Source: Naegleria gruberi (taxonomy: Eukaryota). From it: a DNA stretch of 64,000 nt. The notes beneath the pieces are model-generated. The model was not told the origin of the DNA, ran no database searches, and saw only the letters and a list, made by a program, of their open reading frames with translations. Location: assembly GCA_000004985.1 (NCBI GenBank), contig GG738847.1; one strand, given 5' to 3'. Each line of letters opens with the position of its first letter. The stretch's first letter is position 1. The position numbers and the translations under genes were made by a program. Shown here in pieces: positions 1 through 56,147 of the stretch.

Positions 1-3000
1 ATGAAGGATGACCAAGTGGTTGAACCAACATCATCACACGTTGTTGAAACCACTCCAATAGTAGTAAAACATTCACCTATTCATAAAGATGATTCTACAA
101 CAAGTGAGCAACAACAAGTAGATTCTACCACTCTGATTTTACCACCATCACAATCAACACCAACTATTGAACAAGTTATTACAACATCAACACCACCTCC
201 TTTATCACCACCTCCAACAACAACAATACCAATAGTAACATCAGACAAAGTTAACAAAGAAATCTTACCTCCTACAGTTCAAGAAGATATAACATTACCA
301 CCACCAATCACTACTACCAACAATGCTACTACTCCTCCTACCACCACTAGTATTATACCACCAACAATAGAACCATCAACAAGAGAAGTGACTGAGGAAG
401 AGGAAACAATTGAAAGTGATGAAGAAGAGGATGAAGATTATCAACCTTCTAAAAAGAAGGCTAAATATACAACATCATCATCTAGTACTACTACTTCTTC
501 TTCAAATGATGATGAAATTATAATTGATAAAGAAAGATTAGCAGAGGATGAATTACTTTCAAAAGAAAAGGAAATTTTGAAACAAGTTAAAGAAATGCAA
601 AAGAGAGGAGAATGGCTTCCACAAACACAACAAAAAATTGGAAAAGAACCAAAAATTAACACAACACATTGGGATTATCTATTAATGGAAATGCAATTTA
701 TTCAAAGTGAAAATGCAAAAGAAAAGAAATGGAAAATGTCAACAGCTAAAAAGAATGCCAAAAATGTTGCTAAATATCATGAACAATTAATTCAACTTGA
801 AGTGAAAAAGAAAAAAGAAGCAGAAGCTCATTTAAGAAAACAAGCTTCAAAAATTGCTAAAATTGTCAAGACTGAATTTTGGGATAAGATTAGAAAACTT
901 GTTACTTTTAAAAATCAATCAATTATTGATGAAACAAAACAACAATTATTAGCTGAAAAGAGAGATTTACTTGTTCAACAAACTGAAAAATTTACACAAC
1001 TCATTTCACAAGATTTAATTTTACAACCAACACCTTTACAAAATTCAAGTAATAGTACTGAATCAACAGCGACCACTACTATCAATGATAATACTAGTAA
1101 TAATAATAATACAGATAGTAGTAGTAACAATGATAATATGGATACAACTTCAGATGATAAAAATACAGCAACACCATCAGTTGAATCATTAATTTTAAAT
1201 AATTCTTCAGAAACTAATGAAGCAGAAGAAGAAGATTTTGATTCAGAAGAAGAATCAGATTTATCTGACGATCATATCATTGATTCTGATGATGAAGATG
1301 AGGATTATGAAGATGAAATTGCAATGTTACAAAAAGATATGGAAATGGATACTGAACAACTTCTTTTACAACATTACAATAAACCTCCACAAGATGAGGA
1401 GGAATTGTCATCACCACCACAACAAGAACAACAATCAGATGCCATTTCTACTACCACCACCAATACAACTACTTCCAATGATCATCATACTATGAGTGAT
1501 GAAACTCTTACAAATATAGCAACTACATCTGATAATACTAATAGTAATAATAATACTAGTGATAATAATAATCAAAATGATAATGCTAAATTTATTCAAG
1601 TAGCAGAGGATGCTAAACAATATCAACCAACAGGATGTACACTTCAAAGTACCAAAGTTAAAACACCAATTCCATATCTATTAGATAAAGATTTAGTATT
1701 GAGAGAATACCAACAAATTGGACTTGATTGGTTAGTAACAATGCATGATAAGGGATTGAATGGAATTTTAGCAGATGAAATGGGATTAGGTAAAACTATC
1801 ATGACCATTGCACTTATTGCACATTTAGCATCTAAAGAAGAAATATGGGGACCACATTTAGTTGTTGTACCTTCAAGTGTTTTATTGAATTGGGAAATTG
1901 AATTTAAAAGATGGTGTCCCTCATTGAAAATACTTTCCTATCACGGAACACAAAAACAGAGAAAGGATAAGAGAGTTGGATGGAGTAAACCAAATGCATT
2001 TCATGTTTGCATTACTTCATACAATTTAGTAATACAAGATGCTCTATCATTTAAGAGAAAGAAATGGCACTATTTAATTCTAGATGAAGCTCATCATATT
2101 AGAAATTTTAAAGGTCAAGCATGGCAAACATTGTTAAATTTTAATACTGAAAAGAGATTATTATTAACAGGTACACCATTACAAAATAATGTTATGGAAT
2201 TGTGGTCATTGATGCATTTTTTAATGCCACAAGTATTTCAATCTCATTCAGAATTTAAAGATTGGTTTTCAAATTCAATTCAAGGAATGGTTGAAGGTAA
2301 ACAAGAATTGAATAGAGAATTAATTTCACGTTTACATACAATTTTAAGACCATTCATTTTGAGAAGATTAAAGAAGGAAGTTTCAGAACAATTACCTTCA
2401 AAACAAGAACATGTTATCAAAGTTAGACTTTCACAAAGACAACGAAATTTATATGAAGATTTTATATCAAGATCTGATACGAGAGAAACTTTAGCTTCAG
2501 GAAATGTTTTTAAAATGATTAATGTTGTAATGCAATTAAGAAAAGTTTGTAATCATCCAGATTTATTTGAACCACGTCCAATTATTTCTCCACTTTCATT
2601 ACAACCTTTAGAATTATTATCAATTCCATTAGATTTTATTAATATCGATAATATTTATTATGGTTCTAATGAATATATGAATGATAATTCAAATAGATTG
2701 AAATCTTTACAATTTACTTTGAAAAATTATTTCAATTTCATTTTTACACAATATGAAATGGAAATGAATCATTATCATTATTATCAAGTTAAACAGTTAA
2801 AAATTCAACCTTATCAATCATTTATTAATAATAATCATAGTAATAGTAATCATATCAATAGTAATAATAGTAATACTAATAATAATAATAATCATAACAA
2901 TAATAATACTACCAATAATAATAATACTAACAAATCATTATTATTATTAGAAAATTTAACAATTGAAGAAGAGGAATATTTATATAAAATGTATCCTGAT

Positions 3001-4605
3001 TTAAATATTGATAAACATTTAGATAATCCATATTTTAAGAAACGTTCATTAGAAATGGCACTTGAAAGATATAATGAAAAATCTAATAGATTAGCATATA
3101 TGCAATTAGTTAATCAAAATAGATATAAAAGAAGACCTATTTATGGATATAATTTAATTAAAAAGATTGAAAGTTTATATTTAAATGATCATTTAAGAAA
3201 ATATCATGAACATTCTAATATTAGAAATGTTAATCATTTAGAAATGAGTAATATTTTATTAGAAATGTGTAAAACTTATCAAGATGTTGCTCAAGATTAT
3301 GATTTTGAATTGAATAATTTTATTTGTTTTATTCATCCAGCTAGAACAAGTGAAGAATCACAAATAAGAGAAGTATCAACTATTAGATATAAGAGAGATG
3401 AAATGAATGAAAATTCTAGACAATTAATTTCATCAACATTGGATTTAATAAGAAAACCATCTATTAGAATGCAAATGCATTTTCCTGATAAACGTTTATT
3501 ACAATTTGATTGTGGTAAACTTCAAAAATTATCAAATTTATTAAAAGATTTAAAGAGAGGTGGACATAGAATATTAATATTTACTCAAATGAGTAAAATG
3601 TTAGATGTATTAGAATCATTCATGTCAATGAATGGACATTCATATTTTAGACTTGATGGTCAAACTAAATTAGAAGAAAGACAATACATGATGGAAAGAT
3701 TTAACACTGATCCTAAAATATTTGCATTCATTTTATCAACAAGAAGTGGAGGTGTTGGTATTAATTTAACAGGTGCAGATACTGTTATATTTTATGATAG
3801 TGATTGGAATCCTGCAATGGATGCACAAGCACAAGATAGATGTCACAGAATTGGTCAAACTAGAAATGTTAATATTTATCGTTTAATAAGTGAATCAACT
3901 ATTGAAGAACGTATTTTACTTAAAGCCAATCAAAAAAGACACATGAATGAAATTGTTATACATAATGGTGCATTTACACCTGATTTTTTAAAGAATCAAA
4001 TGGAAGTGAGAGATTTATTTCAAGATTCAATTGATTTTTCATCTGCATTGAAATCTGCTGAAGAACAAATGTTAACTTTTAATACTACTACTACTAGTAA
4101 TATAATAATAGAAGAACTATTATTTCTACTAATAGTGATGATAATGATGATGGATCAAAGGAAAATTATAATGAAAAGGATTTGGATAGAATTTTAGCAA
4201 GTGCAGAAGATGAAAATGATGTTGAAGGTTTGTTTTTTAAGATTTTTTTAATTTTTTAATTATAATATTATTTAATATAAATAGCATTGAAAAATGCAAA
4301 GAGAGAACAAAATGAACAATCTCAAAATGATTATGCTGATGAGGAAAATGCAGAAGATGATATTATCAAACATTTATCATCTGTTGAAAAGTATGTTTAT
4401 TCTTTTATTTAAAATTTAAATTCAATTATAATTATATAATATTTAATATTAAAGATATGGATTTGAATTATTAACATCCATGACATTGAGAGCAGTTCAA
4501 CAAGAAATTGAAGAAATGAAACAAAATGAAAAGGAAAAGACTGAAAATTGGAAGAGTGAAATTGAAACAATTCAACAACCAAATGAAGAAGAAGAAGAAG
4601 TCTGA
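1..4605 (+). CDS. SWR1/SRCAP-type Snf2-family chromatin-remodelling ATPase, 5'-partial at the window edge. It has an HSA domain (KINTTHWDYLLMEMQF), helicase motif I (DEMGLGKT), a ~330-aa insertion that splits the ATPase, and a C-terminal lobe (FDCGKLQKL...DSDWNPAMDAQAQDRCHRIGQTR). The C-terminus continues through two introns at about 4228-4284 and 4391-4454, reaching a stop at about 4603-4605.
   Basis: The 1398-aa ORF 1..4197 matches the Swr1/SRCAP motif order. Exons 2 and 3 are inferred from GTTTGT...AG and GTATGT...AG boundaries. The frame changes near 4100-4140 (see findings). Confidence 0.85.
2821..2935 (+). repeat. AAT/AAC trinucleotide microsatellite encoding a poly-Asn tract inside the Snf2 ATPase insertion.
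   Basis: Runs of aat/aac codons in the sequence. The ORF translation reads NSNTNNNNNHNNNNTTNNNNTN. Confidence 0.8.
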
Positions 4606-4996
4606 TAATAGTTCTGATGATCAATCTTCAGAAGAAGAATCTGATAATGAAATCGATGATTTAAAACAACAAGAGGTATTGCATCAATCACAATTACACA
4701 ACACTGACACACACTCTATAACACTACCACCACTATTACCACTATCACCACCATTATCATCATTACAATTTAATAACGATATTAGTAATGATGATAAAAT
4801 ATCCTCCTCATCATCACGTAAACGAAAGAGTACACTATTGGAATAATCACAATTTCACTCAACTAAGTTTTTATAAAAATTTAATTTTTCACATAACAAT
4901 TTTACTTACATTTTAAAGTTTAAACAAGATAGAAATGTATTAAATTCTTTACAAATTAGTATACCAACTGCAATATTAAGAGATTTATATGGTGAT

Positions 4997-9225: not shown

Positions 9226-9505
9226 NNNNNNNNNNNNNNNNNNNNNNNNNNNNNNNNNNNNNNNNNNNNNNNNNNNNNNNNNNNNNNNNNNNNNNNNNNN
9301 NNNNNNNNNNNNNNNNNNNNNNNNNNNNNNNNNNNNNNNNNNNNNNNNNNNNNNNNNNNNNNNNNNNNNNNNNNNNNNNNNNNNNNNNNNNNNNNNNNNN
9401 NNNNNNNNNNNNNNNNNNNNNNNNNNNNNNNNNNNNNNNNNNNNNNNNNNNNNNNNNNNNNNNNNNNNNNNNNNNNNNNNNNNNNNNNNNNNNNNNNNNN
9501 NNNNN
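9226..9505. other. Assembly gap, a run of 280 N.
   Basis: Literal n characters in the sequence. Confidence 1.
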
Positions 9506-9660
9506 TCCAACATACACACTCCTCAAAGATAAAATATCTTAATCACTCCCAATTTTAATCAATGATTATTATCCACACTGTACTACTACTACTACTTGAA
9601 GAGATTACCATTAAATTAAATAATATTAATATATTCAATTATAAAATTCAATTAAAAAAA

Positions 9661-22266: not shown

Positions 22267-22704
22267 TAAATTAGTATGAGATGATTGTTTATTTCTAAGA
22301 ATGAAATAGAAGATAAGGAATAAATGTATTAAACAATTGAGGATGTATTGATGGGTTATTAATATAATATATTACTCATTCCTTTTCAATACTATTTAAT
22401 ACTCTTTATTGTTATCATTACAATGATATTAACAGTAGTTGCAAAAATCTTGATCATTCTAATTAAATTTTAAATTGCAAGAAATATGTATAATGTATTT
22501 CTAATTTTTAGATAAATATTACTAGCAGTAATCCTTACTAAAATTGAAATTGTAATTTTTTACTTTCTTGTTACAACAATCAACCTTTAAATATCATTTT
22601 AAATTTCCAAATATATAAATTTTAATATTTTGATAACCAATTAGATGCAATCATGCAAAACACATTTCCCGCCATTTTTTGTACAATTTATTCAAAGTAA
22701 AAAA

Positions 22705-24918
22705 ATGTCCTCCAACAATCCACGTGGATTCAATCAACAACAAAACATTAATAGGAGAGAATTATCATTCAATGTTGTTGGAGTTGGAAAACAAAACTCA
22801 AATACATCAACTAATACAACTTCAAATGGTGGTTCATCTTCTCCTACCACTAATTCTACAACAAATAATGTTGTTACTTCTACAACCAATAGTAAGCCTT
22901 CAAATACATCACCTAAATCATCAAAATCATCTTCATCATCAGCCAATAGTACAAGTAGTCAGAGACAAGCTAACAATGCACCAATTAAAAGTAGTACACC
23001 ACTCACAAAACAATCCTCTGGAACACAACTCACTACTCGAAGTGGAGTTGAAAGTTCTTCCTCTTCTGCTGCTATCAGTAAGAGATTGACTAGTGCTGCC
23101 ACAACAGTTAGTAGTACAACAAGTAACTCAATCAAATCAACAAGTTCATCCATTGCACTCTCATCTGCTTCATCTTCATCAAATCTTCTTCAAACAGTTC
23201 TAAGTAAGGAAGAAGAGGCTGAACTAATTAAAGAATTGTGTGGCGAAGAAATGTACCTATTATTAATATCAAGTAAACATCAAGAAAGAGAAGAATTTCT
23301 AACACGTTTAAATGTATGGATTAATCAATCATCTAATTTACCACATGGATTTATGATTTTTCCAAGTGTAAATTTACCAATTGAAAAGACAAGAGTATTA
23401 AAAGTACTTGCTATTATTCTAAGAATGACACTAGTTGATAAAATTATTAAAATAGTGCAATTAGCATATTCAACATGTATTTTATTAGTTGAATCAGCAC
23501 CAGTACAACAAGCAAAGAATATAACACATTTAAAAGAAGGTCTTTCACAAATATTACCATTATTGATGACTAAAGTAATTGATTCAAATGAAAGAAACTC
23601 TAAGAGTGCTATACAAGCAGTAACAAAAATGTCAACAGTTAAAGTAATTTCTAAATTAGTATTTAATTATGCATTACTATCAATTAATTCAGGTAAACCA
23701 TTATCACCTAAAGCTATTCAAGGTAGAATTTCACTTGTAGAATCACTTGTTTTAAAACATGGATTGAATAATAGTAGTTTAGAAGTTTCAATTCAATTTT
23801 TAGATTTTTTAAATGAATGTTTAACACATAAAACAGTTCAAGTTAAAGATTCATGTATTGAGTTATTAGCAATAATGCATAAATCAATGGGAAAGGAATT
23901 ATTTGATTTAAATGTAATGGATAAATTACCTTCAAAAACATCAACACTTGTACAAAAATTAGAAATTAAAATTAGAGCTAAAAAACAAGAAGAAATTGAA
24001 GAAGAAAAAAAGAAGGAAGAATTAAAAAATCAAAAAACACAAAATGAAACTAATATAGTATTTAAACAAGGTGATATATCGAGAGAATTAATAATGAAAA
24101 AATCACTTAAAAAAATTCAATCAGGTGAATCAATTCGATCATTTTTAAAATCACTAACACATTTACATTTTGATTCATGTAATATTTCTAAAATTATTAA
24201 TTTAGAACATTGTCCAAATTTAAGAGTTTTATATTTATATGATAATAGAATTACTAAAATAGAAGGATTAAATAATAACAAACAATTAATACATTTACAT
24301 TTACATCACAATTTAATTGAAAAAATTGAAGGATTGGATGAATTGGTTAATTTACAACAATTATATTTAAATAATAATAGAATTAAAATTGTTGAAAATT
24401 TAACAAAATTACAAAAACTACAAGAATTACATTTACAACAACAAGATATTGAAAATTCAATGATTTTAGATTCAGATTCAATGAAATCACTTTCAAATTC
24501 ATTAACTTTATTGGATTTAAGTAATAACAAGATTGAAGATTCACTTTCTATTGGATTTTTAGAAAATTTAATTGAATTGGATTTGAGTAAAAACAGAATT
24601 GATAAAATGGATCAAATTTTATTCATTTTAGAAAGTAATAGACAATTACACTCTTTAAATTTAATTGGAAATTCTGTATGCGATTCTTATAAAATGAGAG
24701 ATCAAATCATTGTTTCAAGTAGTTCAGATTTAACTTTATTAAATCAAGTGGAAATTACAGATATTCAGAGAGAATTTTTATTATCATTTGAACATCAAAA
24801 ATTAAAAAGAACATCAAGTGATAATAATGGAATGAATTTGGCTTTACATAATAATAGACAGACAAATAGTAATGAAAATGATCCAAACTTTTTAAAAGAT
24901 TTATTAACAATAAATTAA
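22705..24918 (+). CDS. Leucine-rich repeat protein. The N-terminus is S/T-rich, the centre is an alpha-helical HEAT/TOG-like region, and the C-terminus has SDS22-type LRRs (LxxLxLxxNxIxxIEGL).
   Basis: 757-aa ORF (the track starts at 22645 with an alternative start; the first ATG is at 22705). At least 8 LRR units lie between about 24180 and 24700. Confidence 0.6.
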   Translation: MSSNNPRGFNQQQNINRRELSFNVVGVGKQNSNTSTNTTSNGGSSSPTTNSTTNNVVTSTTNSKPSNTSPKSSKSSSSSANSTSSQRQANNAPIKSSTPLTKQSSGTQLTTRSGVESSSSSAAISKRLTSAATTVSSTTSNSIKSTSSSIALSSASSSSNLLQTVLSKEEEAELIKELCGEEMYLLLISSKHQEREEFLTRLNVWINQSSNLPHGFMIFPSVNLPIEKTRVLKVLAIILRMTLVDKIIKIVQLAYSTCILLVESAPVQQAKNITHLKEGLSQILPLLMTKVIDSNERNSKSAIQAVTKMSTVKVISKLVFNYALLSINSGKPLSPKAIQGRISLVESLVLKHGLNNSSLEVSIQFLDFLNECLTHKTVQVKDSCIELLAIMHKSMGKELFDLNVMDKLPSKTSTLVQKLEIKIRAKKQEEIEEEKKKEELKNQKTQNETNIVFKQGDISRELIMKKSLKKIQSGESIRSFLKSLTHLHFDSCNISKIINLEHCPNLRVLYLYDNRITKIEGLNNNKQLIHLHLHHNLIEKIEGLDELVNLQQLYLNNNRIKIVENLTKLQKLQELHLQQQDIENSMILDSDSMKSLSNSLTLLDLSNNKIEDSLSIGFLENLIELDLSKNRIDKMDQILFILESNRQLHSLNLIGNSVCDSYKMRDQIIVSSSSDLTLLNQVEITDIQREFLLSFEHQKLKRTSSDNNGMNLALHNNRQTNSNENDPNFLKDLLTIN

Positions 24919-31994: not shown

Positions 31995-32067
31995 GCTGGC
32001 GTAGCTCAGTCGGTAGAGCGTTGGTCTAATAAGCCATTGGTCGCCGGTTCGATCCCGTCCGTCAGCA
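31995..32067 (+). tRNA. tRNA-Ile, anticodon AAU (anticodon loop CTAATAA), 73 nt, no intron.
   Basis: Cloverleaf: acceptor GCTGGCG/CGTCAGC with one G-U pair, D-arm GCTC-AGTCGGTA-GAGC, T-arm GCCGG-TTCGATC-CCGTC, 5-nt variable loop. Confidence 0.8.
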
Positions 32068-33046: not shown

Positions 33047-33553
33047 AAGCTTAAAAATTCTCCACCAGCTAGTCTTGCTATGTATTGGAGACTTTGAAGA
33101 GGACAATTTGAAACAAGTGATAACTAAAGAAATTAGGGGACGGAATTGGAAATTTGTAGGCCATGCTGAAGATAATTTCTACATTGTTTTAAACTTTACT
33201 AGAGATTTACAAAGATTAACCTTGTCAGTATGTGTTGTGAATTACGACAATATTAAAAAGATGATCAACAAGTAGAATGCCTTTTCTTCATAAACAAATT
33301 GTTGGATATGGCTATACATTGCTTTCTTTATTTCTGTTTCGTACAGCCATCATACGTTGCACAAAGATTTCATCCCATTATTAGCTGAAATGTAATTGAG
33401 TTTGGTATTTACAGCCAGAAAGACTGGAGAGACAATTATTATTATTGAAAATCACTGCACGTCTTTTAAAGTATTCTTTCTTTGGAAATGAAAAGGAAGT
33501 AAATAGTCAACTATTTAGTGTTTTTAAATATTGAAAATCCGTTAAATATTTGC

Positions 33554-33565
33554 TTCCCGCCAAAA
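33554..33565 (-). promoter_or_regulatory. E2F-type site (reverse complement TTTTGGCGGGAA) about 50 bp upstream of the TPX2 ATG.
   Basis: Matches the TTTSSCGC E2F consensus. GC-rich motifs are rare in this AT-rich intergenic DNA. Confidence 0.35.
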
Positions 33566-33613
33566 TTTTATCATTCAATCCGTTACACAAAACAAATCAC
33601 AACTAAAAAAAAA

Positions 33614-35713
33614 ATGTCCAGTGCAACTCCATCATACACTACTGGTCCGCAACAACAACAACAACAAGAAGACTATATTTTAGAATCCACTTCAGAGGAG
33701 ATTGAGTTGATAGAAGAAGAATGGGAATTTAATGCTCCAAAATACTTTGACTTTGATAAACTCTCTAGAAAAGCCTTTACTCATCAATCTAAGCCTCCGC
33801 ATCATCATCATCAACATGAACAAGATGAAGAATTAAATCATAGTAATGCTGATCAATGGTTCTTTACTCCTGATGCTCAACATTTAGAATTTCTCGATCC
33901 AAAATATATTGATATTAATAATCAGGCTGATACTAATAATCAACAACAAATGATGATGATGAATAATTATGATAATATTGTTGATATTAGTACCATTTCA
34001 AAATATAGTGTTCATCAAGAGTCATTGGGATCATCTACTAATCAACAACAACAATACAATGCAACTACTAATTCAACTCTAGGTACAATTAATGCATTCA
34101 ATTCTATTAGAATGACACCTGTTAAGAAAGTTAAAAGGAAAGTGTTGGCTAAATTGACCATTCCTCAAACTCCAAATTTTAAAACTGAAAAGAGAATTAG
34201 ACAACGAAATAATCAATCTAGTAATCAATCTAATAATCAATCACAACAACAATCATCTATTATGAAAGGTGGTAAAATTAATTTAACAATTGTAAAATCC
34301 TCAAGACCATCCACTGATTTGAAAACCTTAAAAGTACAAGATAGAGATGATAATATTACTAAATTTAAATCTGTTACTAAAATAGCAAATACTACAACAC
34401 CTAAACCATTCAAATTCAGAACTGATAGTAGAGTATTAGATACAGATAGAAGTACAGCAATGGTAGCAGGTGGACATTCACCATTCAATAAGAGTATACT
34501 TCAAAAGATTAATGATATGAGAAATCAAATACCATCAAGATGGAAACAAACTCCAGATATGGTTACTCCACATAAACCAATGAAGATTACAAAACCAAAT
34601 TCTTTCAAATTGAGAACTAAATTTAGAAGTCGTACTAATACTACAATGATGACACAAAATGCACAATTGACTACAGCAACATTCAAGGCTAGACCACTTA
34701 ATAGAAAGATATTTGAAAGTCATGGTGAATTAGGATTATCAAAGATTATGAAGAAGGATATTACACATCCACAAGAATTTAATTTAATGACTGAAGAGAG
34801 AAGTAAGAAGAGAAAATTTGATCAATCAAAATTAGAAGAATCGACAAATATCACTACTCAACAACCTCAACAACAATCAAGCGATTTTACAAGACCATTC
34901 AAGGCTAGAAAATTAGATAATATTCTATCTGGTAGTTATATGGTACAATCATCTAAAATTATTTCAAAATCAACAACCATTCCAGAATCCCCAAAATTAT
35001 TAACAAAATCCAGAGCAGGTAATAGGTCTATTTTATTACATAATCATCACCAACACTCTGAAACTAATACTTCCAATTCTTCACAACATTCAAATGTAAC
35101 ATTTAGAGCTAGACCATTACCTACAACTCAACCATTCATTCCCAAAATTACTCATACCATAACAGTTCCACAACCATTTTCACTTGAAACAGAAAATAGA
35201 GGAACCATTCATAAGAAACAATTAGATTCTAAATTGAATGAAAAAGATGAAAAGGAAAATACATTACGAGTATTTAAAGCTAGACCAATTCATCACTATA
35301 CAAATGTAGATACATCAAAGATTTTACACAAACCAGTTACTGTACCAGTTTCACCAAATATTACAAAAGTTAAATCATCATTTAAAGATTCAATTCTTTC
35401 CTCAGCATCTGTAGCATCGTCGTGTGTAGCATCAACCATTATTGGACCAAAATTACCACACTCTTTCAAGGCAAGACCAATGCCAGATTTTAATTCATCA
35501 ACACTCAAGAGTTCTATTACTACTACAAATAATCATAGAAATGTACCAATGGAACCATTTAATCTTGCAACTGAAAAGAGAGGACAAGTTTATCAATCAA
35601 AATTCAAAGCATCTGTTCAGTCAATAGAAAGAGTTTCAATTTCTAAAATAGATGATGGTACTTTTACAAGTGTTACTAAACGAGTTTACAATTCAATTCA
35701 AAACTTACGTTAA
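33614..35713 (+). CDS. tpx2: TPX2-family microtubule-associated protein with a repeated FKARPLNRKIFE / FKARP...PF.F.TE.RG C-terminal TPX2 motif.
   Basis: Four to five FKARP/FRARP repeats, with PFSLETENRG and PFNLATEKRG typical of the TPX2 C-terminal domain. The ATG is at 33614. Confidence 0.7.
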   Translation: MSSATPSYTTGPQQQQQQEDYILESTSEEIELIEEEWEFNAPKYFDFDKLSRKAFTHQSKPPHHHHQHEQDEELNHSNADQWFFTPDAQHLEFLDPKYIDINNQADTNNQQQMMMMNNYDNIVDISTISKYSVHQESLGSSTNQQQQYNATTNSTLGTINAFNSIRMTPVKKVKRKVLAKLTIPQTPNFKTEKRIRQRNNQSSNQSNNQSQQQSSIMKGGKINLTIVKSSRPSTDLKTLKVQDRDDNITKFKSVTKIANTTTPKPFKFRTDSRVLDTDRSTAMVAGGHSPFNKSILQKINDMRNQIPSRWKQTPDMVTPHKPMKITKPNSFKLRTKFRSRTNTTMMTQNAQLTTATFKARPLNRKIFESHGELGLSKIMKKDITHPQEFNLMTEERSKKRKFDQSKLEESTNITTQQPQQQSSDFTRPFKARKLDNILSGSYMVQSSKIISKSTTIPESPKLLTKSRAGNRSILLHNHHQHSETNTSNSSQHSNVTFRARPLPTTQPFIPKITHTITVPQPFSLETENRGTIHKKQLDSKLNEKDEKENTLRVFKARPIHHYTNVDTSKILHKPVTVPVSPNITKVKSSFKDSILSSASVASSCVASTIIGPKLPHSFKARPMPDFNSSTLKSSITTTNNHRNVPMEPFNLATEKRGQVYQSKFKASVQSIERVSISKIDDGTFTSVTKRVYNSIQNLR

Positions 35714-38586: not shown

Positions 38587-38596
38587 TTGGCGCCAA
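38587..38596. promoter_or_regulatory. Palindromic E2F-type site TTGGCGCCAA in the TDP1 promoter, which is the SMC1 3' intergenic region.
   Basis: TTTGGCGC consensus on both strands. Confidence 0.35.
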
Positions 38597-38679
38597 ACTT
38601 TTTTGAAGTTCGAGTAAAATTTCGAATTGACTTGCATAATAAAAATTTTTAAGTTTTTGAATAGTAATTTTACAAATAA

Positions 38680-42576: not shown

Positions 42577-42743
42577 TGTTTAATAAATAAATTAATTGTT
42601 GTTTGTTCGTCGATCTAGTAATGTTAATTATTTAGGCTGGTGATGATGTTAAAGCCTTTTGATGAAATCGACTAATTCTTAGGGTGATACACTTTATCAG
42701 TGATCGTTTTTGAATATTTTTTTTTGTGATTATTTTTCTTCTT

Positions 42744-42773
42744 GGCGCGAAATGCTGTGAATTTGGCGGGAAA
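42744..42773. promoter_or_regulatory. Tandem E2F-type sites (GGCGCGAAA and TTTGGCGGGAAA) in the divergent SMC1/Sfi1-like promoter. A third site, cTTGGCGC, is at 42908-42915.
   Basis: Canonical TTTSSCGC motifs. They lie between two divergently transcribed genes involved in chromosome segregation. Confidence 0.4.
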
Positions 42774-42949
42774 CTTTTCTATTATTTAAAAGAATTTTTA
42801 AATCTTAGAAATCATTTTGTTACTGTGAAGATATCCTTAAGTATTAGATAGAACAAGTTTATCAGTATTAGAATATTAATTCTGTTGTTGTATTTTATCA
42901 CACTAAACTTGGCGCTCTTCAAAATACAATTTAAATTTAGCCTTAAAAA

Positions 42950-45900
42950 ATGCTCAAACAACCAACAACAAAACCATTGGCTATTGTTGGGGTCAATAAT
43001 AATCAACAACAGAGAAGAGTTACACAGAGTAATTTACCTCAACGACAAGCTGTCTCTTCATCATCACGACCATCGACATCATCCCGAACACCACAACCAC
43101 CAACAAATTCAACTAGGAAAACCACATCAAACAATAATCATCAGACAAACAATAATAGACTTCGACAACAATCAGCACACAACGTTCATACAACATCTAA
43201 AAATTCTAAAATACCTGATAATAGAAGTTCTTCTAATGAACCTCTTATTAGATATCACAATTTGGATGATGAGGAACCGGAAACTTTGGATGAAGAGGAA
43301 GAAGATATTCAAACAGTATCTGTGATCCCTTCTTTTGGAAGAAATATATTTCATCAACAACGAGTTAATATCAATGGCGATTCAGTAATGAAAATTAGAT
43401 CACCAATAATACAAACCCCTGTAAATATTCCATCAACAGAACAAAAAGTAGTAATCAAACCACCAACAAAGTTGACTGATTCAATAAGTGCCCTCACTAA
43501 ACAATATAGAAAACTGGGCGATTTCCCATTTCAACCAACAATACAACCTGAAAAACAAGAAAGCTTTTCGGATGAGTGGTCAAGGAAAAAACAAGCTGCA
43601 TTAGAAAGGAGAAAAAACAAATCGAGGAATGAATATCTTGCAAGAAAAGTAGTTGATCATTGGAAATGGTTTGCAAGAAAAGGATTGGATGAAATTAAGG
43701 CCAAAAATAAGAGGAATATCGTTTTAATATTCAAAACATTTCAACATTGGAAAAGAAGAAAAGAGGAAAGAGATAATTTATGGAAAAAAGAATTTATTGT
43801 ACAAACAAGACAAAAGTTCACTTTGATGCAAACCTATTTCAATCAATGGTTGACTCAATTGGAAATATCGAGAGAAAGAGAAGAACTCTACACAGATAGA
43901 GCTTACAGTTTTTTGAAACGAAAATTGGAACACAAAGTGTTGAAATCTCTTAAATTATTTGTTCTGCAAAGAAAAGAAAGAAGAGAAATTATTGATATAG
44001 CTGATACTTTTGCAAATAGAAGAATCATTAAGGGCTCACTAAGAAAAATTAAGGAAGGTTAGTATATTTCAATTACAATAATAAGGACTAACATATGATA
44101 GTTAAAATAATGCAGGATAAGGACACAGCAGCTGATCATTTCTGGCAACATCAACTATTCATTAAAACAATAAGAAGTATTAAAATGTATATAGGAGAAG
44201 AAAATTACAACAAGGAATGTTTGGCACTGGAGTTTTTCAATAATAATCTGAAATCAAAATCACTGAAATCACTTGCCCTGTACTATAGAGCCAAAGAGCT
44301 CAAAAGAAAAACAATTGAACAGAATAATATGAAAGCTGATAATTTCTTCAAAGATCGTCACATTCAAGAATACTTTAAAGCTTTGCAAGATTTTTGGCAA
44401 AGTAGAAAACAAAAACAAATCAGAGAGCAAACCTCATTTACTTATTACAGAAATACTAATGTCAAGAATTTCTTTGGATATTGGAAAATGTGCAGTTCAA
44501 ATTCAATCCATTTCAAGGAGTTGGAGGTATGTTGATTATTAAGGAAATTGATTCAAATAACTTATTGCTTAGTCAATCATCCAAAAGAAGGAAAGAAAGG
44601 CTCTTTTAAAAGAGTTTTTTTCTCAATGGAAAGAAAAATTAAATGGGAAAAATCTCATGCTCAATATGGAATATGAAGCTAAACGATTTTATGACCACAG
44701 TATCAAATGCAGAGCCTTTATAAGTTTGAAAACTGTAAGTTGAACACCATGATATTTCTAATATCGATTAGTATAATAATTTTAGGCAAGAAAAAGAAGA
44801 ATCAAAAAACAAATCAATTAGTTTTAATTCGTTTTCAGTTGTGTATAAGGCATTCAGACATTGGAAGGTAAGTTGTTTGAAGAAGTTATTACTGATGAAA
44901 TAATTAGACAAAATTTGAATTAGAGAGAGATAAAACATCAGAAAAGAATAGGATTGTTGATAATTTGATTAGAACCAAAAACAAGCAACTTATACTGAAA
45001 GTAATAGCCAATCTAAAGTCTCATAAAAATAAGAAAAAGGCCAAACAAAATGAAGAAGATAAGAGAGTTATGGAACTACGAAAGATATTACAAAGAAAAA
45101 AGATGGAAAGAATTCTTAAATCATGGAAAGATTATCAAAATTACAGAACACAAAGAAGAGTTGATTATGAAAGAGCAGTTATGCACTATCAAAGAATTCA
45201 AAGAGAGAAATCAATGAAACAACTCTACGCATACATGTTATACAAGAGAAGGAAATATTGCCTCTATGAAAAAGCTGAAAAATTCACAATGAATCACTCA
45301 ATCAAGAACATATTTCAGTATTGGTTTGGAATAGTGGATGACAGATTGAATACTAAATGTAAAATCAAGAAGGCTGAGTTTACTTTCTCTAAACATTTAG
45401 CCAAGAAAACCCTTCGTTCCTTTAAGAATTATGTTTATTACAAAAGAGCCAAATCCAAGTTAGAAATTGAAGCTATGGAAAATAGAAAAGCACTCCTAAT
45501 GAGAAGAGGCATGATACAGTTAATGGAAAGTTCCTTTGAGGAAAAAACAAAACGAATGAACATGATTGAAAGGTTAAATCTTAAAAGTACTGCTGAAGAT
45601 CTGAAGAAAATTGAAAAATTTGCTAGGCATTGGCTTTATATTACAATAAGAAATGCTCACAAGAGAGGATCTGGTCTTTTTAGTGGATACAGAAGTTTGA
45701 CCATTCAAAACACCAAAGAAGAGGAACCATCCTCAAACAAATTTGATAGAGAACCTACAAGTCAACTAAAATATCCAAAAAGAAGAGCTTCTCCAAGAAG
45801 ACCATCAGATGTTGATCGTCTAAAGTTTAATGATTCAAATTCTGTTACAATGGCCCCACCATCAAGAGTCAAGTTTGAAAGTTTTCCTTCTCCTAGTGAG

Positions 45901-46332
45901 ACTAGTAGTATTTCAAGTGAATTGCTAGAACAAGAGGAATTAGTCAGTAGAATTGAGAGAATTGAAAATCTCTCCTCTGTTGTAGAAGAAACAAATAACA
46001 ATATAACTGAAGAACCAGTTTATACGAATGATACAAGCACTACTGAAGAACAAGAGGCTATCCTTCTTCAGGTTGATAAAATCAAATCCATTCTTGAAGA
46101 ATTTGATAATAATTGGACACCAGTATACGAATTTGAGAAGGAAAGAAGAAAAGCCTTGAAGGAACTCTTAGATCTCGAAGAAGATGTTTCCATCATGCAA
46201 GAGTATGCAACTGAATTGTCGCACCTAGAGAAGAGAGCAAAAACCTATTTGAAATTTAAGCGGGAAGAACTTCCAAAGCTTTTGAGTCAATTACATGATT
46301 GTCTACATTCTGTGTTGCCGCTTTCTGAATAA
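42950..46332 (+). CDS. sfi1: Sfi1-like centrin-binding repeat protein (repeated ...F/LxxW[KR] units: HWKWFARKG, FQHWKRRKEE, YFNQWLTQL, FRHWK, FQYWFGI, ARHWLYI). It has multiple exons with introns at about 44058-44101 and 44527-44572, and two more between about 44735 and 44912.
   Basis: ORFs 42950..44062, 44095..44535 and 44965..46332 link through GTTAGT/GTATGT/GTAAGT...AG introns. The repeat periodicity resembles Sfi1. The family assignment is moderately confident. Confidence 0.55.
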
Positions 46333-46353
46333 AAAAAAATAGCCTTAATCATC

Positions 46354-48952
46354 ATGCTCAATCAACCACTCAACCCACAAGATTCATTTTTGAGTCGATC
46401 AACCTCGGGTAAAATTATGAGAACGCCAAGTCGATCAAAGAGAACATCAACAACTCCTCTTTCTTCATCAACTAGTACTCCAAGGAGAGGAAATCAAGAG
46501 GCTAAAGGTGCTACATCATCCACAGCTGTTAATATTGTTGCTATTTTGGACAACCCGGCAAGAGATGTAGGCTTTGCTGTTTTCAATATGAGAACGAATT
46601 CAATCTTCCTCACTCAGTACAATGAAGGATCAAGCTACATCAACACTTGTAATATGTTGAAAGTGTATGAACCATCCGAAGTACTTTTTCCTAAATCTTT
46701 GTTTGATTCGAAACTAGCCTCTATCGTCAAGCAAGAATTAGAATCTAATGCTGATAATCAAAATAGTGCTGCAAAGGCTAAGGTAACCTTCATTGCTAGA
46801 AAACTCTTCAATGAGAATAAGGGAGTTGAAATAATAGACACCCTAATGATGGATGATAATGCTTCTATCAAATCCGATACAATTGCCAAATATTTGAGTG
46901 TTAGTTCCCTCTCTGCTGTTGTTCAATATGTTGAATTCATTCAAGAGTTAACATTTCAACCAAGAAGTCTCCGAATTAATTATGTTGCTTGTGATGGACA
47001 TTTAATGCTTGACTCTGCCAGTATTTCTTCCCTTGAAATTGTTAGAAGCCTCAAATATGGAAACTCTCATTGTACACTACTCTCACATATTGATAATACT
47101 AAGACACCAATGGGAAAGAGAATCATTAGATCAAATATTCTTCAACCATTGCTTGATGTTAATTCTCTCAATGCCAGATTAGACAGCACTGAGGAGATAT
47201 TGTCCAAGGAGAAAGAGTTTTTCGAAATTGGAGCTCTCCTTGCAGAGTTTAGTTCCATTGATCTGAGTCATCTATTAACTCAATTCACTCACACCAGAAA
47301 GAATGCGAGAGGTTCTTGCCACACTCTTGTACTCAATATTATTAGCTTGAGGAAGATGTTGAGTAAACTCCCCAAACTAGAAAGTTGCATGAGAGAGTAT
47401 AATACTCCAATCCTCCAAGCAATTTGTAGTGCTCTCAAATTCCCTGAAAATGAATCTCTTCAAGAAGAAATGGACGAGATAATCAATGAGAAAAGCATTC
47501 TTAGTTGTAAAAACAAACAGCAACAAATTATCTTTGCAGTAGCTCCTGAAATTGATGCTCTGTTGGATATTGGAAGAAAGAAATACATTGAGACTGTTGA
47601 AGAAATCCACGAACATCACAAGCATTGCCAATCAGAGGCAGGAATTTCCTCTCTCAAGTTAAAATACAATGTAAGAAGAGGATATCATTTTAGCATTGAA
47701 GGTAATTATACATTTCTAAATTGATTCTTAACATTTCAAAGATAAAAATGGAGAGTCACACAAAATGTTCATTCAAAAGTCAAAGAAAGGAAAACAAACT
47801 CACTGCTCCACCCAAGAATTGAACTCCCTTAATGTTAGATTGAAGGAAATTATTGATGAAATCTACCTAATGACAGATTTGGTTGTGAATAGACTTGTAG
47901 AATCCATTAGAAATCATTTGAGTCAACTTTACAAGCTGAGTGAGTCCATTGGATTATTAGATATGCTTTATAGCTTTGCCACCTTAGTTACTCTATCCAA
48001 CAATTACGTGAGACCAGAGTTTTGTAGCGAGGGACCAATAGCCATCAAACAAGGAAGACATCCTGTCATGGAGAAGCAACTTCAAGGCCAATATGTTCCT
48101 AATGATACCTTTATGGCCGAATCATGCAACTTTCAAATAATAACTGGAGCCAACATGAGCGGCAAGAGCACATATCTTAAACAAATAGCCACTATTCAGA
48201 TACTAGCTCAAATTGGAAGCTTTGTTCCATGTGCTTTTTGCAATTTAAGAATTTGTGATAGAGTATTCACCAGAATTGGTAATAATGATAGTATTGAGAG
48301 CAATAGCAGTACATTCATGGTAGAAATGGTATGTTACCAATTGTTTTAAACTTTTAAATCTTATCTATCATTTAGAAAGAGGTAACCAATATTGTTCAAA
48401 ATGCAACAAACAAAAGTCTAATAATTATTGACGAACTAGGAAGAAGTTCAAGTAATATTGAGGGAACTTCAATTGCTTGGAGTATTGCAGAACATTTGAG
48501 TGTAAGTTTTACAAATTCAGCTTCATTCTTAGTTATTAAATTAGTCAATCAGAGCCTATTCTCTCTTTGCAACACATTACACAGAATTGAGTGATTTGGA
48601 GAGCTTGTATCCAAATATTAAAAATTCACATCTCAGAGTAACAACCACACAAGACGGTGAATTAAACTACTTGTATCAAATCCAACCTGGTAACTGTAGT
48701 GAAGACAGATATGGTATTAAGCTTGCAAAAATGCTTGGTCTCTCTTCCAAGATTATCACTGAAAGTGAGCATATTCTCGATGAATTACTCCAGCAAAAGC
48801 AAAAACCTCAAAGAAATACTGAGGATATTAAGCAAAGAAAAATAGTATTTAGTATTGCATCTAAATTAATTGCCCATTCTGATGCAGGAATTGACAGTTT
48901 CAAAGAAATAGTACAGAAATTACAATCAACTATAAATGTTCAACAAAATTAG
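46354..48952 (+). CDS. msh4: MutS homolog 4 (MSH4), meiosis-specific and lacking the mismatch-binding domain I. Four exons lie at about 46354-47701, 47742-48328, 48376-48501 and 48545-48952.
   Basis: TPMGKRIIRSNILQPL (MutS domain III), ANMSGKSTYLKQIATIQILAQIGSFVP...NSSTFMVEM (Walker A region, very close to MSH4), FATHYTEL...LYPNIKNSHL. Canonical introns. Confidence 0.8.
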
Positions 48953-50078
48953 GAATCAAATTTTTGGAACATTTGTGAACAAAACTCGAAACTGCCCAAA
49001 GTTAACACTGCAGCAGGTACAACTCTCACTAAATTAGCTCCCATTCCACGATAAAATCCTCTATATCCTTCTTCATGCCAAATTCTGTAAATAGCATCCC
49101 TCATTCCTTTATATGGTTCATAATTAGCTCCTGTTTGAATATTTTTACCATGTCCATGATCTTGTAATCTAGATCTCAACACTTCGTGAGGATATGCAAT
49201 CATACTGGCTATAATCTTACTAACAGAACTGGCTATTAAAATATCAACTGTTGAATTATGTCTCTTATCATGATCTTTCAATAATCTTTTCAAATATTCT
49301 ATTCAAATATAATCATTAGATAATTGTTGATTGAATGAAACAAAAACATACCATAAGTTGGGAATTGTACACCAACGTGAATTAAACCAAATAATGAAGG
49401 AGCTAATCCTCTATATAAACCTCTAATGCCTTCAGTTTTGAAAATTTCACTCAAGGCATGAAAAGTTCCAGTATATTTCTTTTCTACTTGTGTTTGCATT
49501 CTAGTTTTTACAACCCACATAGGTGATGTTATGAATGAAGTAATAAATCCACTGAGCATCGAACTAAAAACGTGATTTAAATGTACATGATTTGAAAGTA
49601 AAGCACTCTTTCCGAATGACTCTTTAAAATGTTCATATGATGTAAAGTAAATTGCCCAATTCGGAACATATCCCAATAAATTTGTTCCTAATCCTTTGTA
49701 TAAACTTGTAATTCCTTCGTGTTTGATCATGTGTTTCATTGTTCCTAAAATTCCTTTCGATTTTTGATATTTTGGTATATGCTGATTAGATAAGTGAGTA
49801 TAGTGAGTTGGTATTTTGACAGGAATTCTTTGAATGATTAAACGTGTTTTAACTACATCGAGAGGTGCCAATACTATGGTTGATATTACACCTGACATAC
49901 TTCCAGCCAATGCATTAACCATCTTTTGATGATGAGCAGAATTTGTATTCGGAAGGGTTGATAAAAGTAAATTTGTAATTGATGATGAAGAAGATGACAA
50001 TGGTAATGAATCATTCATATCACCAATAGCTGCTTGTTGCTGCTGTTCACTGCTACTACTTGTTGATGATGGATTCAT
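48949..50078 (-). CDS. Mitochondrial carrier family (SLC25) protein of the Rim2/pyrimidine-nucleotide-carrier type. Two exons lie at about 49352-50078 and 48949-49298, with a 53-nt intron.
   Basis: Three carrier signatures PLDVVKTRL, PMWVVKTRMQ and YPHEVLRSRLQ. The intron is GTATGT...AATAG. Confidence 0.8.
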
Positions 50079-53600: not shown

Positions 53601-56147
53601 AAAACATCATTGTTCTATTCACAAAACATCCTAAAATTGATCCAAAAGTTATTTCCAACATTGAAAATCCATCAATTTCACCTCCAGAAACTATTGTCAT
53701 TGCATATTACACTGAAAATGATATGCCATTAGGAAAGTTTCTTGAACTCAGATGTTTTAATAAGGCCAATTTGGCAAATTATTTGAATACTATCCGAATC
53801 TATACTCATAATGAAGGTAAAATAACTTTAACCATTGAAAAGTCATCAGAAATAATTTCCTCCTCAGATGAAGGTATTGCCATGTGGAATTATTGTAAAA
53901 TTTGTGAAAGACACGTTACACCTGTTATTCCAATGTCCGAAAGTGCCTACAAGTATTCATTTGGTAAATTCCTTGAATCAACATTTTATAATCATTCATT
54001 GAAATGTAGAACAGGAGGTTGTAATCACTCAGTTCATCATGATCATATTAGATATTTTGCCTATAATGATATTATTGCCAAGTTTGAATACAAACCTGTG
54101 AGTGTATATAATTTAGTGTTCCCAGGAAATCAAATTACCTATGATAGTAATCAACAACGTAATCAATTCTTGATTCTTATTCAAAATGTCACTGATGCTT
54201 GTCAGATTTTATTTAATGATTTTAATCAACTCGTAAATGAAATCTCTTGTAATTATTCAGTATTGACACAGGAACAAATCACTCAAGTTACTGAACTTGG
54301 AGAACAAATCAAAACACAACAATCTTCACTGTGGACAACATTAGAAGCCATTTCACAAACCAAAGAAAATATTTACACTTTGAATGATTTTATTAGAAAT
54401 GTTTACATTTCCTCATTGGGATGGAATGATATGATTATTGAAATGTTTTCCAAGTTTGGAATGCTCAAAAACAATGGTAAATCTTCAACCTCAATCAATA
54501 ATAATACTTCATCCATTCCAAATGCATCTTCATTAACTAGTAGTTGTATAAAGAAGAAGGAAACAAAGATTTCTGTTCAATTAACAGTTGATGAAAATAG
54601 AATCAAAGTAATACTTGAAGAGATTGAATGTGGTGTCAATGTACCATTACTTAATTTAGATAATGTTGAAACAATGAGTACAAGTAGTAGTTCAAATGGT
54701 AGTAGTATGGTTAATAGTAATAGTCTTGGTAATTTTACCACTAGTACTGGTTTATCACTTGATACTAAAATTGTTTCTCCGAGAGGAGCTGATACAGATG
54801 GAGAGTTGGTTTCACCAATTTCAACCTCAAGAAAATCATTTAATATTTTCACATTCAAGAATCAAAACAAACAATCTTCAATCTTTGATCAATTACAACT
54901 TAAACCAGTGAAATTACCAAATATTATTGATAATGTTTCAGCTCACATGTTTTTACCATCAGGTTCTAATGATGCCAATGTAATTGTTTACAATGATGAA
55001 CCATCTACTATTATTTCCTATACATTGAGTTCAAATGATTATTACAAATTCCTTCCTTCAAAAGATGATATTGATATTGAATTAGTTTTAAAATCAAAAG
55101 ATAAGAATCACTACAAGTTTTGTAAGTATATTTAACATCAAGTAGTATTAATTATCTACTTAGCATTCTATGATACACCAAATTCAACTTCCAGTAACAA
55201 GGTAACACTTATTAATGGTGCTGAATTACCATCCAATACTGCAATAGCTTCAAATCCAATATCTGCAGGTAGATCTAAGAATAAGACCAAGTTCAGTTGC
55301 ACTTGCTTCTTTTCTAATCAATTTTCTGCTTTAAGAAAAGCCTATTGTAATGGTGATGATTCATTTATTCATTCACTTGCTAGATGTGTCAAGTGGACAC
55401 CAACAGGTGGTAAAAAGGGTTCATTTACCATGTCTTGGGATTCTAGATTTGTGTTAAAAGAAGTTTCCCGAGTTGAATTGTTATCATTCTTAGAAATTGG
55501 ACATTCCTACTTTGAATATGTTGCCAGTTCTTTATATCATGAATTACCAATTGTTTTAGTTAAAATATTGGGAGTTTTTAGATTGAGTTACCATGATAAT
55601 AAGGGTAAACCAATCAAGAAAGATGTGATTGTTATGGATAATTTATTCTACAATAGAAATATATCAAAGAGATTTGATTTGAAAGGTTCTACAAGAAATA
55701 GATATCAAAAAACAGAAGGAGCCACATTGATGGATGAGAATTTACTCGAATGTAAGTTTTAAATTTTCATTTAATTTCTAATAATATGTCAATACAGTTA
55801 TTTGTAATGGATCTCCTCTCATAACAAGAGAAGCATTCAAGTCAATTTTGACAATTAGTGTATTCAATGATACCCTATTCCTTAGCAAGCATAATGTCAT
55901 GGACTATAGTTTACTAGTTGGTATAGATGAAGAGAATGGGGATATTATCCTTGGTATTATTGACTATGTGAGACAATACACGTGGGATAAGCATTTTGAG
56001 ACTTGGGTCAAATCTGCTGGTATTATTAGTAATAAGGGTAAGGTTCCAACTGTTATTTCACCAAAACACTACAAGACAAGATTCAGGGAAGCAATGCAAA
56101 GGTATATTGTTGCTACATGCAGCAAATTAACAGGTTTATTGAGTTAA
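50663..56147 (+). CDS. pikfyve: 1-phosphatidylinositol-3-phosphate 5-kinase (PIKfyve/Fab1) with a FYVE finger, a chaperonin-like CCT domain and a C-terminal PIPK kinase domain. Three exons lie at about 50663-55121, 55164-55751 and 55797-56147.
   Basis: FYVE motif WMPDDRVTNCYECLTPFSVFKRKHHCRICGQIFC. PIPK motifs GKKGSFTMSWDSRFVLKEV, MDNLFYNRNISKRFDLKGS and MDYSLLVGIDEENGDIILGIIDYVRQYTWDK. The introns are GTAAGT...TAG/CAG. Confidence 0.9.

Follow-up and report, generated by a model that had tools for sequence, protein, structure and literature searches.

Overlapping transcription units and promoters lying within upstream genes occur in the compact genomes of microsporidia, nucleomorphs, Giardia, and Entamoeba. 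As at the locus described here, only tens of bases lie between tandem genes in these organisms, control elements are no further than a few tens of nt from the ATG, and 3′ ends necessarily overlap neighbouring genes. The locus, formed by an Sfi1-like gene followed by MSH4, belongs to a stretch of 64,000 nucleotides of Naegleria gruberi DNA (contig GG738847.1), hereafter called the window. In contrast to the organisms above, Naegleria is free-living and has a much larger genome with normal spliceosomal introns; moreover, only the Sfi1-like/MSH4 pair is so tightly spaced in the window, and the overlap of the two units is deduced here from sequence.

Two other systems can be compared with this locus. 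In animals and plants, genes for mismatch repair and recombination belong to the typical targets of E2F. E2F/DP promoters carry TTTSSCGC sites near the transcription start, and in the window the SMC, Sfi1-like, TDP1, CEP104-like, and TPX2 genes likewise have E2F-type sites at their 5′ ends, whereas the candidate sites of MSH4 match only seven of the eight consensus positions, fall inside coding sequence, and have no conserved counterparts in N. fowleri. The E2F/DP/Rb proteins have been reported across Excavata (PMC4862756). The spliced-leader operons of Euglenozoa and nematodes share with the locus genes on the same strand, a very short intercistronic distance, and a conserved order, but Heterolobosea do not display the directon and intergenic signatures of polycistrony, and promoter-like motifs precede the second gene here. 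Promoter elements of Naegleria have had no experimental characterisation, flanks of about 1 kb having been used in one study (PMC12845041), and our literature search on transcription start sites and UTR lengths in Naegleria found nothing specific.

The Sfi1-like open reading frame (ORF) ends with a TAA at 46330-46332 on the plus strand, and the next ORF opens with an ATG at 46354-46356, as shown by direct reading and by the ORF list. The 21-nt spacer between them (46333-46353, plus strand; AAAAAAATAGCCTTAATCATC) is in frame with both flanking ORFs, which thus share one frame with a single TAA between them (...PLSE*KKIALIIMLNQ...). The junction was compared with two N. gruberi-like haplotypes, both assembled from the metagenome run ERR1078381. 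The first (contig L001, ENA ERZ929261) matched the window over 3957 bp with seven SNPs, none of them at the junction; the second (L008) differed at six sites, none before 47370, with an identical junction. The TAA was the same in both. Since two further haplotypes carry the identical junction, it results neither from a sequencing error nor from an assembly error, and the distance of about 21 bp between the Sfi1-like stop and the MSH4 start, given in a preliminary description of this DNA, is borne out. As a side observation (47370-48028), run ERR1078381 contains at least two N. gruberi-like haplotypes, each 6-7 sites away from the reference per ~4 kb.

No RNA element was apparent at the junction. 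The predicted RNA structure was not unusual (z = +0.36), no Rfam match was obtained across 46000-46700 at E ≤ 1, and a search of the whole window at the gathering threshold gave no match to a spliced-leader RNA. A tRNA-Ile (anticodon AAT) at 31995-32067 was the only Rfam or ARAGORN match in the window.

The upstream gene (42950-46332, plus strand) was modelled from the sequence with five exons (42950-44057, 44102-44526, 44573-44734, 44772-44867, and 44908-46332), separated by introns of 44, 46, 37, and 40 nt, and encodes 1071 residues. The centrin-binding Sfi1 repeat was described with the consensus AX7LLX3[F/L]X2W[K/R], occurring every ~23-35 residues (PMC2173958). The product of the upstream gene contains five [FWL]xxW[KRH] motifs, when 0.49 was expected from shuffled sequences, with tryptophan spacings of 27-33 or 66 residues, and one match to the Kilmartin double-repeat pattern, a result reached by 0.15% of shuffles (P = 0.0015). 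A Pfam search with the full 1071-residue model returned nothing at E ≤ 1, PF08457 included. However, remote homologues of the last exon match the Pfam Sfi1 family (P0250 at 32.1 bits, for a cut-off of 22, and P0260 at 20.6 bits), and the N. fowleri orthologue is named Sfi1 domain protein in UniRef. The label given in the preliminary description is thus reasonable, and "Sfi1-like" is a fair label, of the right strength, for this gene. N. fowleri and a relative with 46% identity share with the window protein a C-terminal motif, EKRAKxYLxFKREELPKLxxQLH, and all three proteins stop 7-11 residues beyond it. This conservation of the C-terminus in three proteins indicates that the Sfi1-like coding sequence truly extends to the TAA at 46330-46332.

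The downstream gene (46354-48952, plus strand) was spliced by eye into four exons (46354-47701, 47742-48328, 48376-48501, and 48545-48952) with introns of 40, 47, and 43 nt, giving 822 residues from the first in-frame ATG. Pfam analysis of the exon ORFs detected MutS_II, MutS_III, MutS_IV, and MutS_V, but not MutS_I (PF01624), which is carried by the bacterial MutS matches and is also absent from the Naegleria MSH4 orthologue. Over 98% of its length, the model shares 69% identity with N. fowleri FDP41_007901; the next named matches were to fungal MSH4 proteins, with the Mortierella "MutS protein msh4" at 36% identity (E = 7e-126) and the Monosporozyma "mutS protein homolog 4", and no MSH5-named protein was found among the best 120 matches. 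Matches in the PDB were restricted to MSH2/3/6 and MutS (E ~1e-59 to 1e-66). By its domains and its nearest named relatives, as far as sequence allows such an assignment, the downstream gene is MSH4-like. MSH4 of other eukaryotes likewise combines MutS domains II-V with the lack of the mismatch-binding domain I, and the Naegleria gene shows nothing unusual in this respect, its ~58 N-terminal residues being of low complexity and poorly conserved, as is common. The presence of MSH4, which had been put forward as notable, is not so, as MSH4-5 were already listed for the genus Naegleria (PMC9928731).

Residues 51-772 of the model are 100% identical to XP_002682288.1, a 722-residue "predicted protein, partial [Naegleria gruberi]", and this identity confirms all three MSH4 splice junctions. 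The public model is partial at both ends, neither end of the gene having been called. Once completed, the protein would have 822 residues from the first ATG or 801 residues from the ATG at 46417, with a C-terminus reading ...LQSTINVQQN. All three SNPs distinguishing the window from L001 in MSH4 exons are synonymous, which indicates that MSH4 is maintained. The seven introns of the Sfi1-like and MSH4 genes (44058-44907 and 47702-48544) are 37-47 nt long, with GTAAGT, GTATGT, GTTAGT, and GTAATT donors, TAG or AAG acceptors, and one CTAAC branch-like motif.

The identity with XP_002682288.1 and a six-gene synteny with N. fowleri establish that the DNA is from N. gruberi, an amoeboflagellate belonging to the Heterolobosea, and the dictyostelid framework in which it had previously been placed was wrong; macrocysts and a comparison with dictyostelid genomes are therefore irrelevant to it. 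In N. fowleri (L003), the order and orientation are the same: TDP1 (minus), SMC (minus), Sfi1-like (plus), MSH4 (plus), mitochondrial carrier (minus), and PIKfyve (plus). The distance from the Sfi1-like stop to the MSH4 ATG is 52 nt in this species. A metagenomic relative (L005) also carries an Sfi1-like gene followed by MSH4, with ~159 nt from the stop to the likeliest ATG. Among these relatives, the linkage is thus conserved as gene order but not as tight spacing (21, 52, and ~159 nt). Outside them, an intronless, AT-rich MSH4 relative with 35% identity was found in L002 (Logan SRR22387979, 2945-5107), with PPR-like and beta-helix-repeat-like genes as upstream neighbours and without the Naegleria synteny. 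It was the sole relative recovered by a protein search with the N-terminal exon of MSH4, which gave almost nothing useful, and a metagenome scan for more Naegleria loci yielded one relative only, at 24% identity. Two further candidates (L006 and L007) were rejected, both being N. fowleri again. None of the window ORFs was present as an exact sequence in the collection searched.

The other tandem spacers of the window are also short, with 106 nt from SMC to TDP1 and at least 175 nt from TDP1 to the next gene (120 and 133 nt for their counterparts in N. fowleri), and the convergent gaps measure 102-166 nt and −4 nt. The latter value corresponds to the mitochondrial-carrier gene (48949-50078, minus strand), whose stop overlaps that of the convergent MSH4 by 4 nt (48949-48952), the MSH4 TAG occupying 48950-48952 on the plus strand and the carrier TAA 48949-48951 on the minus strand. 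As a consequence, the 3′ portions of the two mRNAs must be mutually antisense. MSH4 is thus crowded both upstream and downstream. In N. fowleri, these two genes are separated by +69 nt, and the C-terminal length of the carrier is conserved between the two species. The 21-nt interval is the shortest tandem spacer observed in the window; it is the extreme of an already short distribution, not a different kind of arrangement, and the locus looks like an ordinary crowding of genes in a compact stretch of genome. An in-frame stop at 55133-55135 in the PIKfyve gene (FYVE and Cpn60_TCP1 domains) was considered as a second case of abutting ORFs and was rejected: it lies in a 42-nt GTAAGT...TAG intron (55124-55165), whose length is a multiple of three, so that the gene only looks like two abutting ORFs.

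The location of E2F-type motifs was analyzed throughout the window. The consensus GCGSSAAA was found four times, when 0.49 was expected, and all four copies are located at gene 5′ ends. A relaxed 7-mer, GCG[CG][CG]AA, was found at 11 sites, eight of them in non-coding 5′ regions. Relative to the respective ATG, these relaxed sites are located at about −14 to −24 for TDP1, at −39 for the CEP104-like gene (from ATG 22705, the probable true start), at −41, −185, and −207 for the Sfi1-like gene, at −60 for TPX2 (from ATG 33614), and at −166 to −196 for SMC. E2F-type sites were recorded at 22665-22672 (CEP104-like), 33554-33560 (TPX2), 38587-38597 (TDP1), and, for SMC and the Sfi1-like gene, at 42742-42774 and 42909-42915. 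Within the divergent promoter of these last two genes, they correspond to TTGGCGCGAAA (42742-42752), TTTGGCGGGAAA (42763-42774), and TTGGCGC (42909-42915), and the orthologous promoter of N. fowleri carries a palindromic TTGGCGCCAA. This set of cell-cycle, mitosis, and repair genes, with sites 14-210 nt from their ATGs, looks like an E2F regulon of N. gruberi with very proximal sites. The presence of sites within tens of bases of an ATG implies that promoters are proximal and that leaders are necessarily short. The SMC/Sfi1-like promoter is the only one at which an E2F-type site is conserved in the N. fowleri locus, and TDP1 of this species is without its site, which suggests that these motifs turn over or that some of them arose by chance.

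Several annotation points were noted in the same regions and elsewhere in the window. For the CEP104-like and TPX2 genes (22645-22707 and 33518-33616), the start given by the longest ORF is probably wrong, ATG 22705 and ATG 33614 being likelier in view of their A-rich contexts and of the positions of the E2F sites. An N run, corresponding to an assembly gap, is found at ~9500-9505, just upstream of the ORF starting at 9562. An ORF encoding an SWR1/p400-type SNF2 ATPase (1-4197), whose best named match is from Acrasis kona, appears to extend through short AT-rich introns to ~4600-4850.

Only three of the 11 relaxed E2F-like sites fall in coding sequence, of which the window contains 43.5 kb. 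One is in the Walker A motif of MSH4 and the two others lie within 73 nt of the end of the Sfi1-like coding sequence: GCGGGAA (46260-46266, plus strand), 94 nt before the first ATG of MSH4, and TTGCCGC (46315-46321, plus strand), 39 nt before it. Each is a 7/8 match to the E2F consensus and each includes a rare codon, the Arg codon CGG (46261-46263; 2 of the 542 Arg codons) and the Pro codon CCG (46318-46320; 10 of the 539 Pro codons), respectively. From the coding background rate, a Poisson estimate gives a probability of ~1e-5 for two such sites in one pre-defined 100-nt stretch. The two sites are absent at the orthologous positions of N. fowleri, where CGT is found instead of CGG. Over the final 110 nt of this coding sequence, CpG density was not unusual, 15% of coding windows having at least as many. 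CCCGCC in the L005 spacer was examined by eye as an E2F site and rejected, as its flanks are wrongly oriented. Over the whole window, CpG is strongly depleted (451 observed versus 1315 expected, a ratio of 0.34, at 33% GC) and the codons CGG, CGC, GCG, CCG, and CCC are nearly unused, in agreement with a report that Naegleria is CpG-depleted despite very little 5mC (PMC12695648).

A second feature was observed in the spacer. The 9-mer TAGCCTTAA (46340-46348, plus strand) has two exact copies in the window, the other being at 42938-42946, 3 nt before the Sfi1-like ATG. When the segment from −60 to +30 of MSH4 was compared with the 64-kb window, its best match was the Sfi1-like gene's own 5′ end, and this similarity was the best of 170 gene-start pairs (score of 26 versus 19 for the next; mean 11.5, SD 3.1, z ~4.7). 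The two 5′ ends have a common layout, consisting of an E2F-like site, ~20 A/T-rich nt, TAGCCTTAA, 3-5 nt, and ATGCTCAAWCAACCA; the likeness in TAGCCTTAA/ATGCTCAA is one between two copies in a single species.

Taken together, we favour, with a probability of about 0.6, a reading in which the Sfi1-like gene and MSH4 are transcribed conventionally, each as a gene of its own, and MSH4 has a small proximal promoter extending over the final ~100 nt of the Sfi1-like coding sequence and the spacer. The positions of the motifs and the rarity of the codons were observed directly; from them we infer that the motifs act as a promoter, where transcription starts, and which ATG is used. The elements of the promoter would be the two E2F-like sites (−94 and −39), an A-run, and the TAGCCTTAA element adjoining the start. 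Transcription of MSH4 would probably begin in or just past the spacer, giving a very short leader, and the 3′ end of the Sfi1-like mRNA would form right after the stop or inside the 5′ region of MSH4; with such a 3′ end, the two transcription units would overlap. The preliminary description had concluded that there was no room for an independent promoter, which presumes long spacers; here, E2F-type sites are found 14-60 nt from ATGs and tandem spacers are ~100-175 nt long. Of the three alternatives that it proposed, the sequence evidence favours two, namely a promoter located in the Sfi1-like coding region and a true 5′ end of MSH4 that differs from the predicted one, over co-transcription with the upstream gene.

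The second of these concerns the ATG used by MSH4. The first in-frame ATG (46354-46356, plus strand) is followed by CTCAATCAACCA, as is the Sfi1-like start, and the second (46417-46419, plus strand) encodes M22. The sequence ATGAGAACGCCA at 46417 is identical at 11 of 12 nt to the N. fowleri MSH4 start, ATGAAAACGCCA (MRTPS versus MKTPS). In addition, AGCCTT, the core of the TAGCCTTAA motif, is located 76 nt upstream of the M22 codon in the window, 68 nt upstream of the start in N. fowleri, where it falls in the terminal codons of the Sfi1-like gene, and 70 nt upstream in L005. Such a register among the three is reached by 0.7% of random triples (P ~0.007-0.015, in a test made post hoc, after the motif had been seen and with two possible anchors), and it is lost when the window is anchored on the first ATG. 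The start-sequence match and this register suggest that the ATG at 46417 is probably the ancestral MSH4 start and that the ATG at 46354 is probably a lineage-specific, in-frame upstream ATG, which would add 21 residues if it is within the transcript. The resemblance to the Sfi1-like start, which is itself supported by the N-terminus of the N. fowleri protein, suggests that the transcript includes ATG 46354.

It is possible, although we consider it doubtful, that the 21-nt gap is only a product of the choice of the first ATG, transcription starting downstream of 46354 and translation at ATG 46417, with a stop-to-ATG spacer of 84 nt. The match to the N. fowleri start and the AGCCTT register, obtained only with the M22 anchor, both speak for this possibility, as do the absence of any ATG between AGCCTT and the start in N. 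fowleri and L005 and the agreement of 84 nt with the 52 nt of N. fowleri. Furthermore, no start was ever called in the public N. gruberi model, and 21 extra open codons are unremarkable, being expected by chance in an estimated ~20% of cases. However, the context of ATG 46354 (TAGCCTTAA and ATGCTCAA) is nearly that of the genuine Sfi1-like start, which argues that it lies inside the transcript. In a MAFFT alignment, which is ambiguous for these low-complexity N-termini, residues 13-30 of the window protein pair with residues 6-22 of the N. fowleri protein, making the N-termini roughly co-extensive, and the N. fowleri start is itself a prediction. Even with translation from M22, the promoter would still have to overlap the end of the Sfi1-like gene.

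Multigene transcripts occur in other compacted eukaryotic genomes, and MSH4 could have no promoter of its own and be expressed, in an operon-like manner, from read-through or bicistronic transcripts initiated at the E2F-regulated Sfi1-like promoter. The common strand, the 21-nt gap, the gene order shared with N. fowleri and a more distant relative, and the small space left for a separate 3′ UTR are all compatible with such transcripts, but we regard this explanation as unlikely. The spacer varies from 21 to ~159 nt among relatives, so that tightness is not conserved, promoter-like motifs are located directly upstream of MSH4, and a downstream cistron on a capped mRNA needs trans-splicing or an IRES, when no structured element is present here. 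Moreover, directons of Heterolobosea contain ~2 genes, spacers are equally long inside and between directons, and there is no polycistronic signature of the kind found in Euglenozoa (bioRxiv 10.64898/2026.07.29.740908); in the window, gene orientation alternates often and the long same-strand runs of an operon-type lineage were not seen. That the two genes form a conserved transcription unit, with MSH4 expressed only through read-through of an E2F-regulated centrosome gene, seems to us quite improbable from the sequence. Such a unit, if it existed, would represent an operon at an early stage, in a lineage that is sister to the polycistronic Euglenozoa, and would keep a meiotic gene expressed where sex was never observed.

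It is very unlikely that the TAG at 46340-46342 serves as a 3′ splice acceptor (TAG|CCTTAA) and that both MSH4 and the Sfi1-like gene possess an upstream non-coding exon or leader, their true 5′ ends lying elsewhere. Both copies of the motif have the form of an A/T-rich TAG|CC a few nt before an ATG, and the introns of the locus end in TAG or AAG, but no convincing GTAAGT- or GTATGT-type donor was found 37-47 nt upstream of either copy, and the E2F-like sites would lie within the intron. A general acceptor would not be expected to be a specific 9-mer of only two genes, and spliced-leader trans-splicing is not known in Heterolobosea.

Finally, an Sfi1-MSH4 fusion protein, produced by programmed stop-codon read-through or separated by a recent nonsense mutation, has hardly any likelihood: the single stop between two ORFs in one frame would allow it, but chance alone gives a common frame in one case out of three, the N. 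fowleri genes are in different frames, the L005 spacer contains a further in-frame stop (TGA), the position at which the Sfi1-like protein ends is common to three species, the junction has no stimulatory RNA structure, and the TAA is found in all three haplotypes. Overall, our sequence analysis provided no evidence that the locus is an operon, yields a read-through fusion, or contains an RNA element.

This junction is real but ordinary and is best explained by an MSH4 promoter embedded in the neighbouring gene, the only mildly interesting features being the E2F-like sites embedded in rare codons and the duplicated 5′-end module. The main value of the analysis is that of a correction, the DNA being from N. 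gruberi and not from a dictyostelid, and of an aid to annotation, including the completion of the partial MSH4 model XP_002682288.1. Usable leads for the construction of compact expression vectors are also provided by the TAGCCTTAA element and by the E2F-type sites of the five cell-cycle genes. The locus illustrates how small Naegleria promoters must be. If functional, the embedded E2F-like sites would be a clear case of regulatory sequence in the synonymous positions of a neighbouring gene, and they would place a "meiotic" crossover gene under cell-cycle control in an amoeba without an observed sexual cycle.
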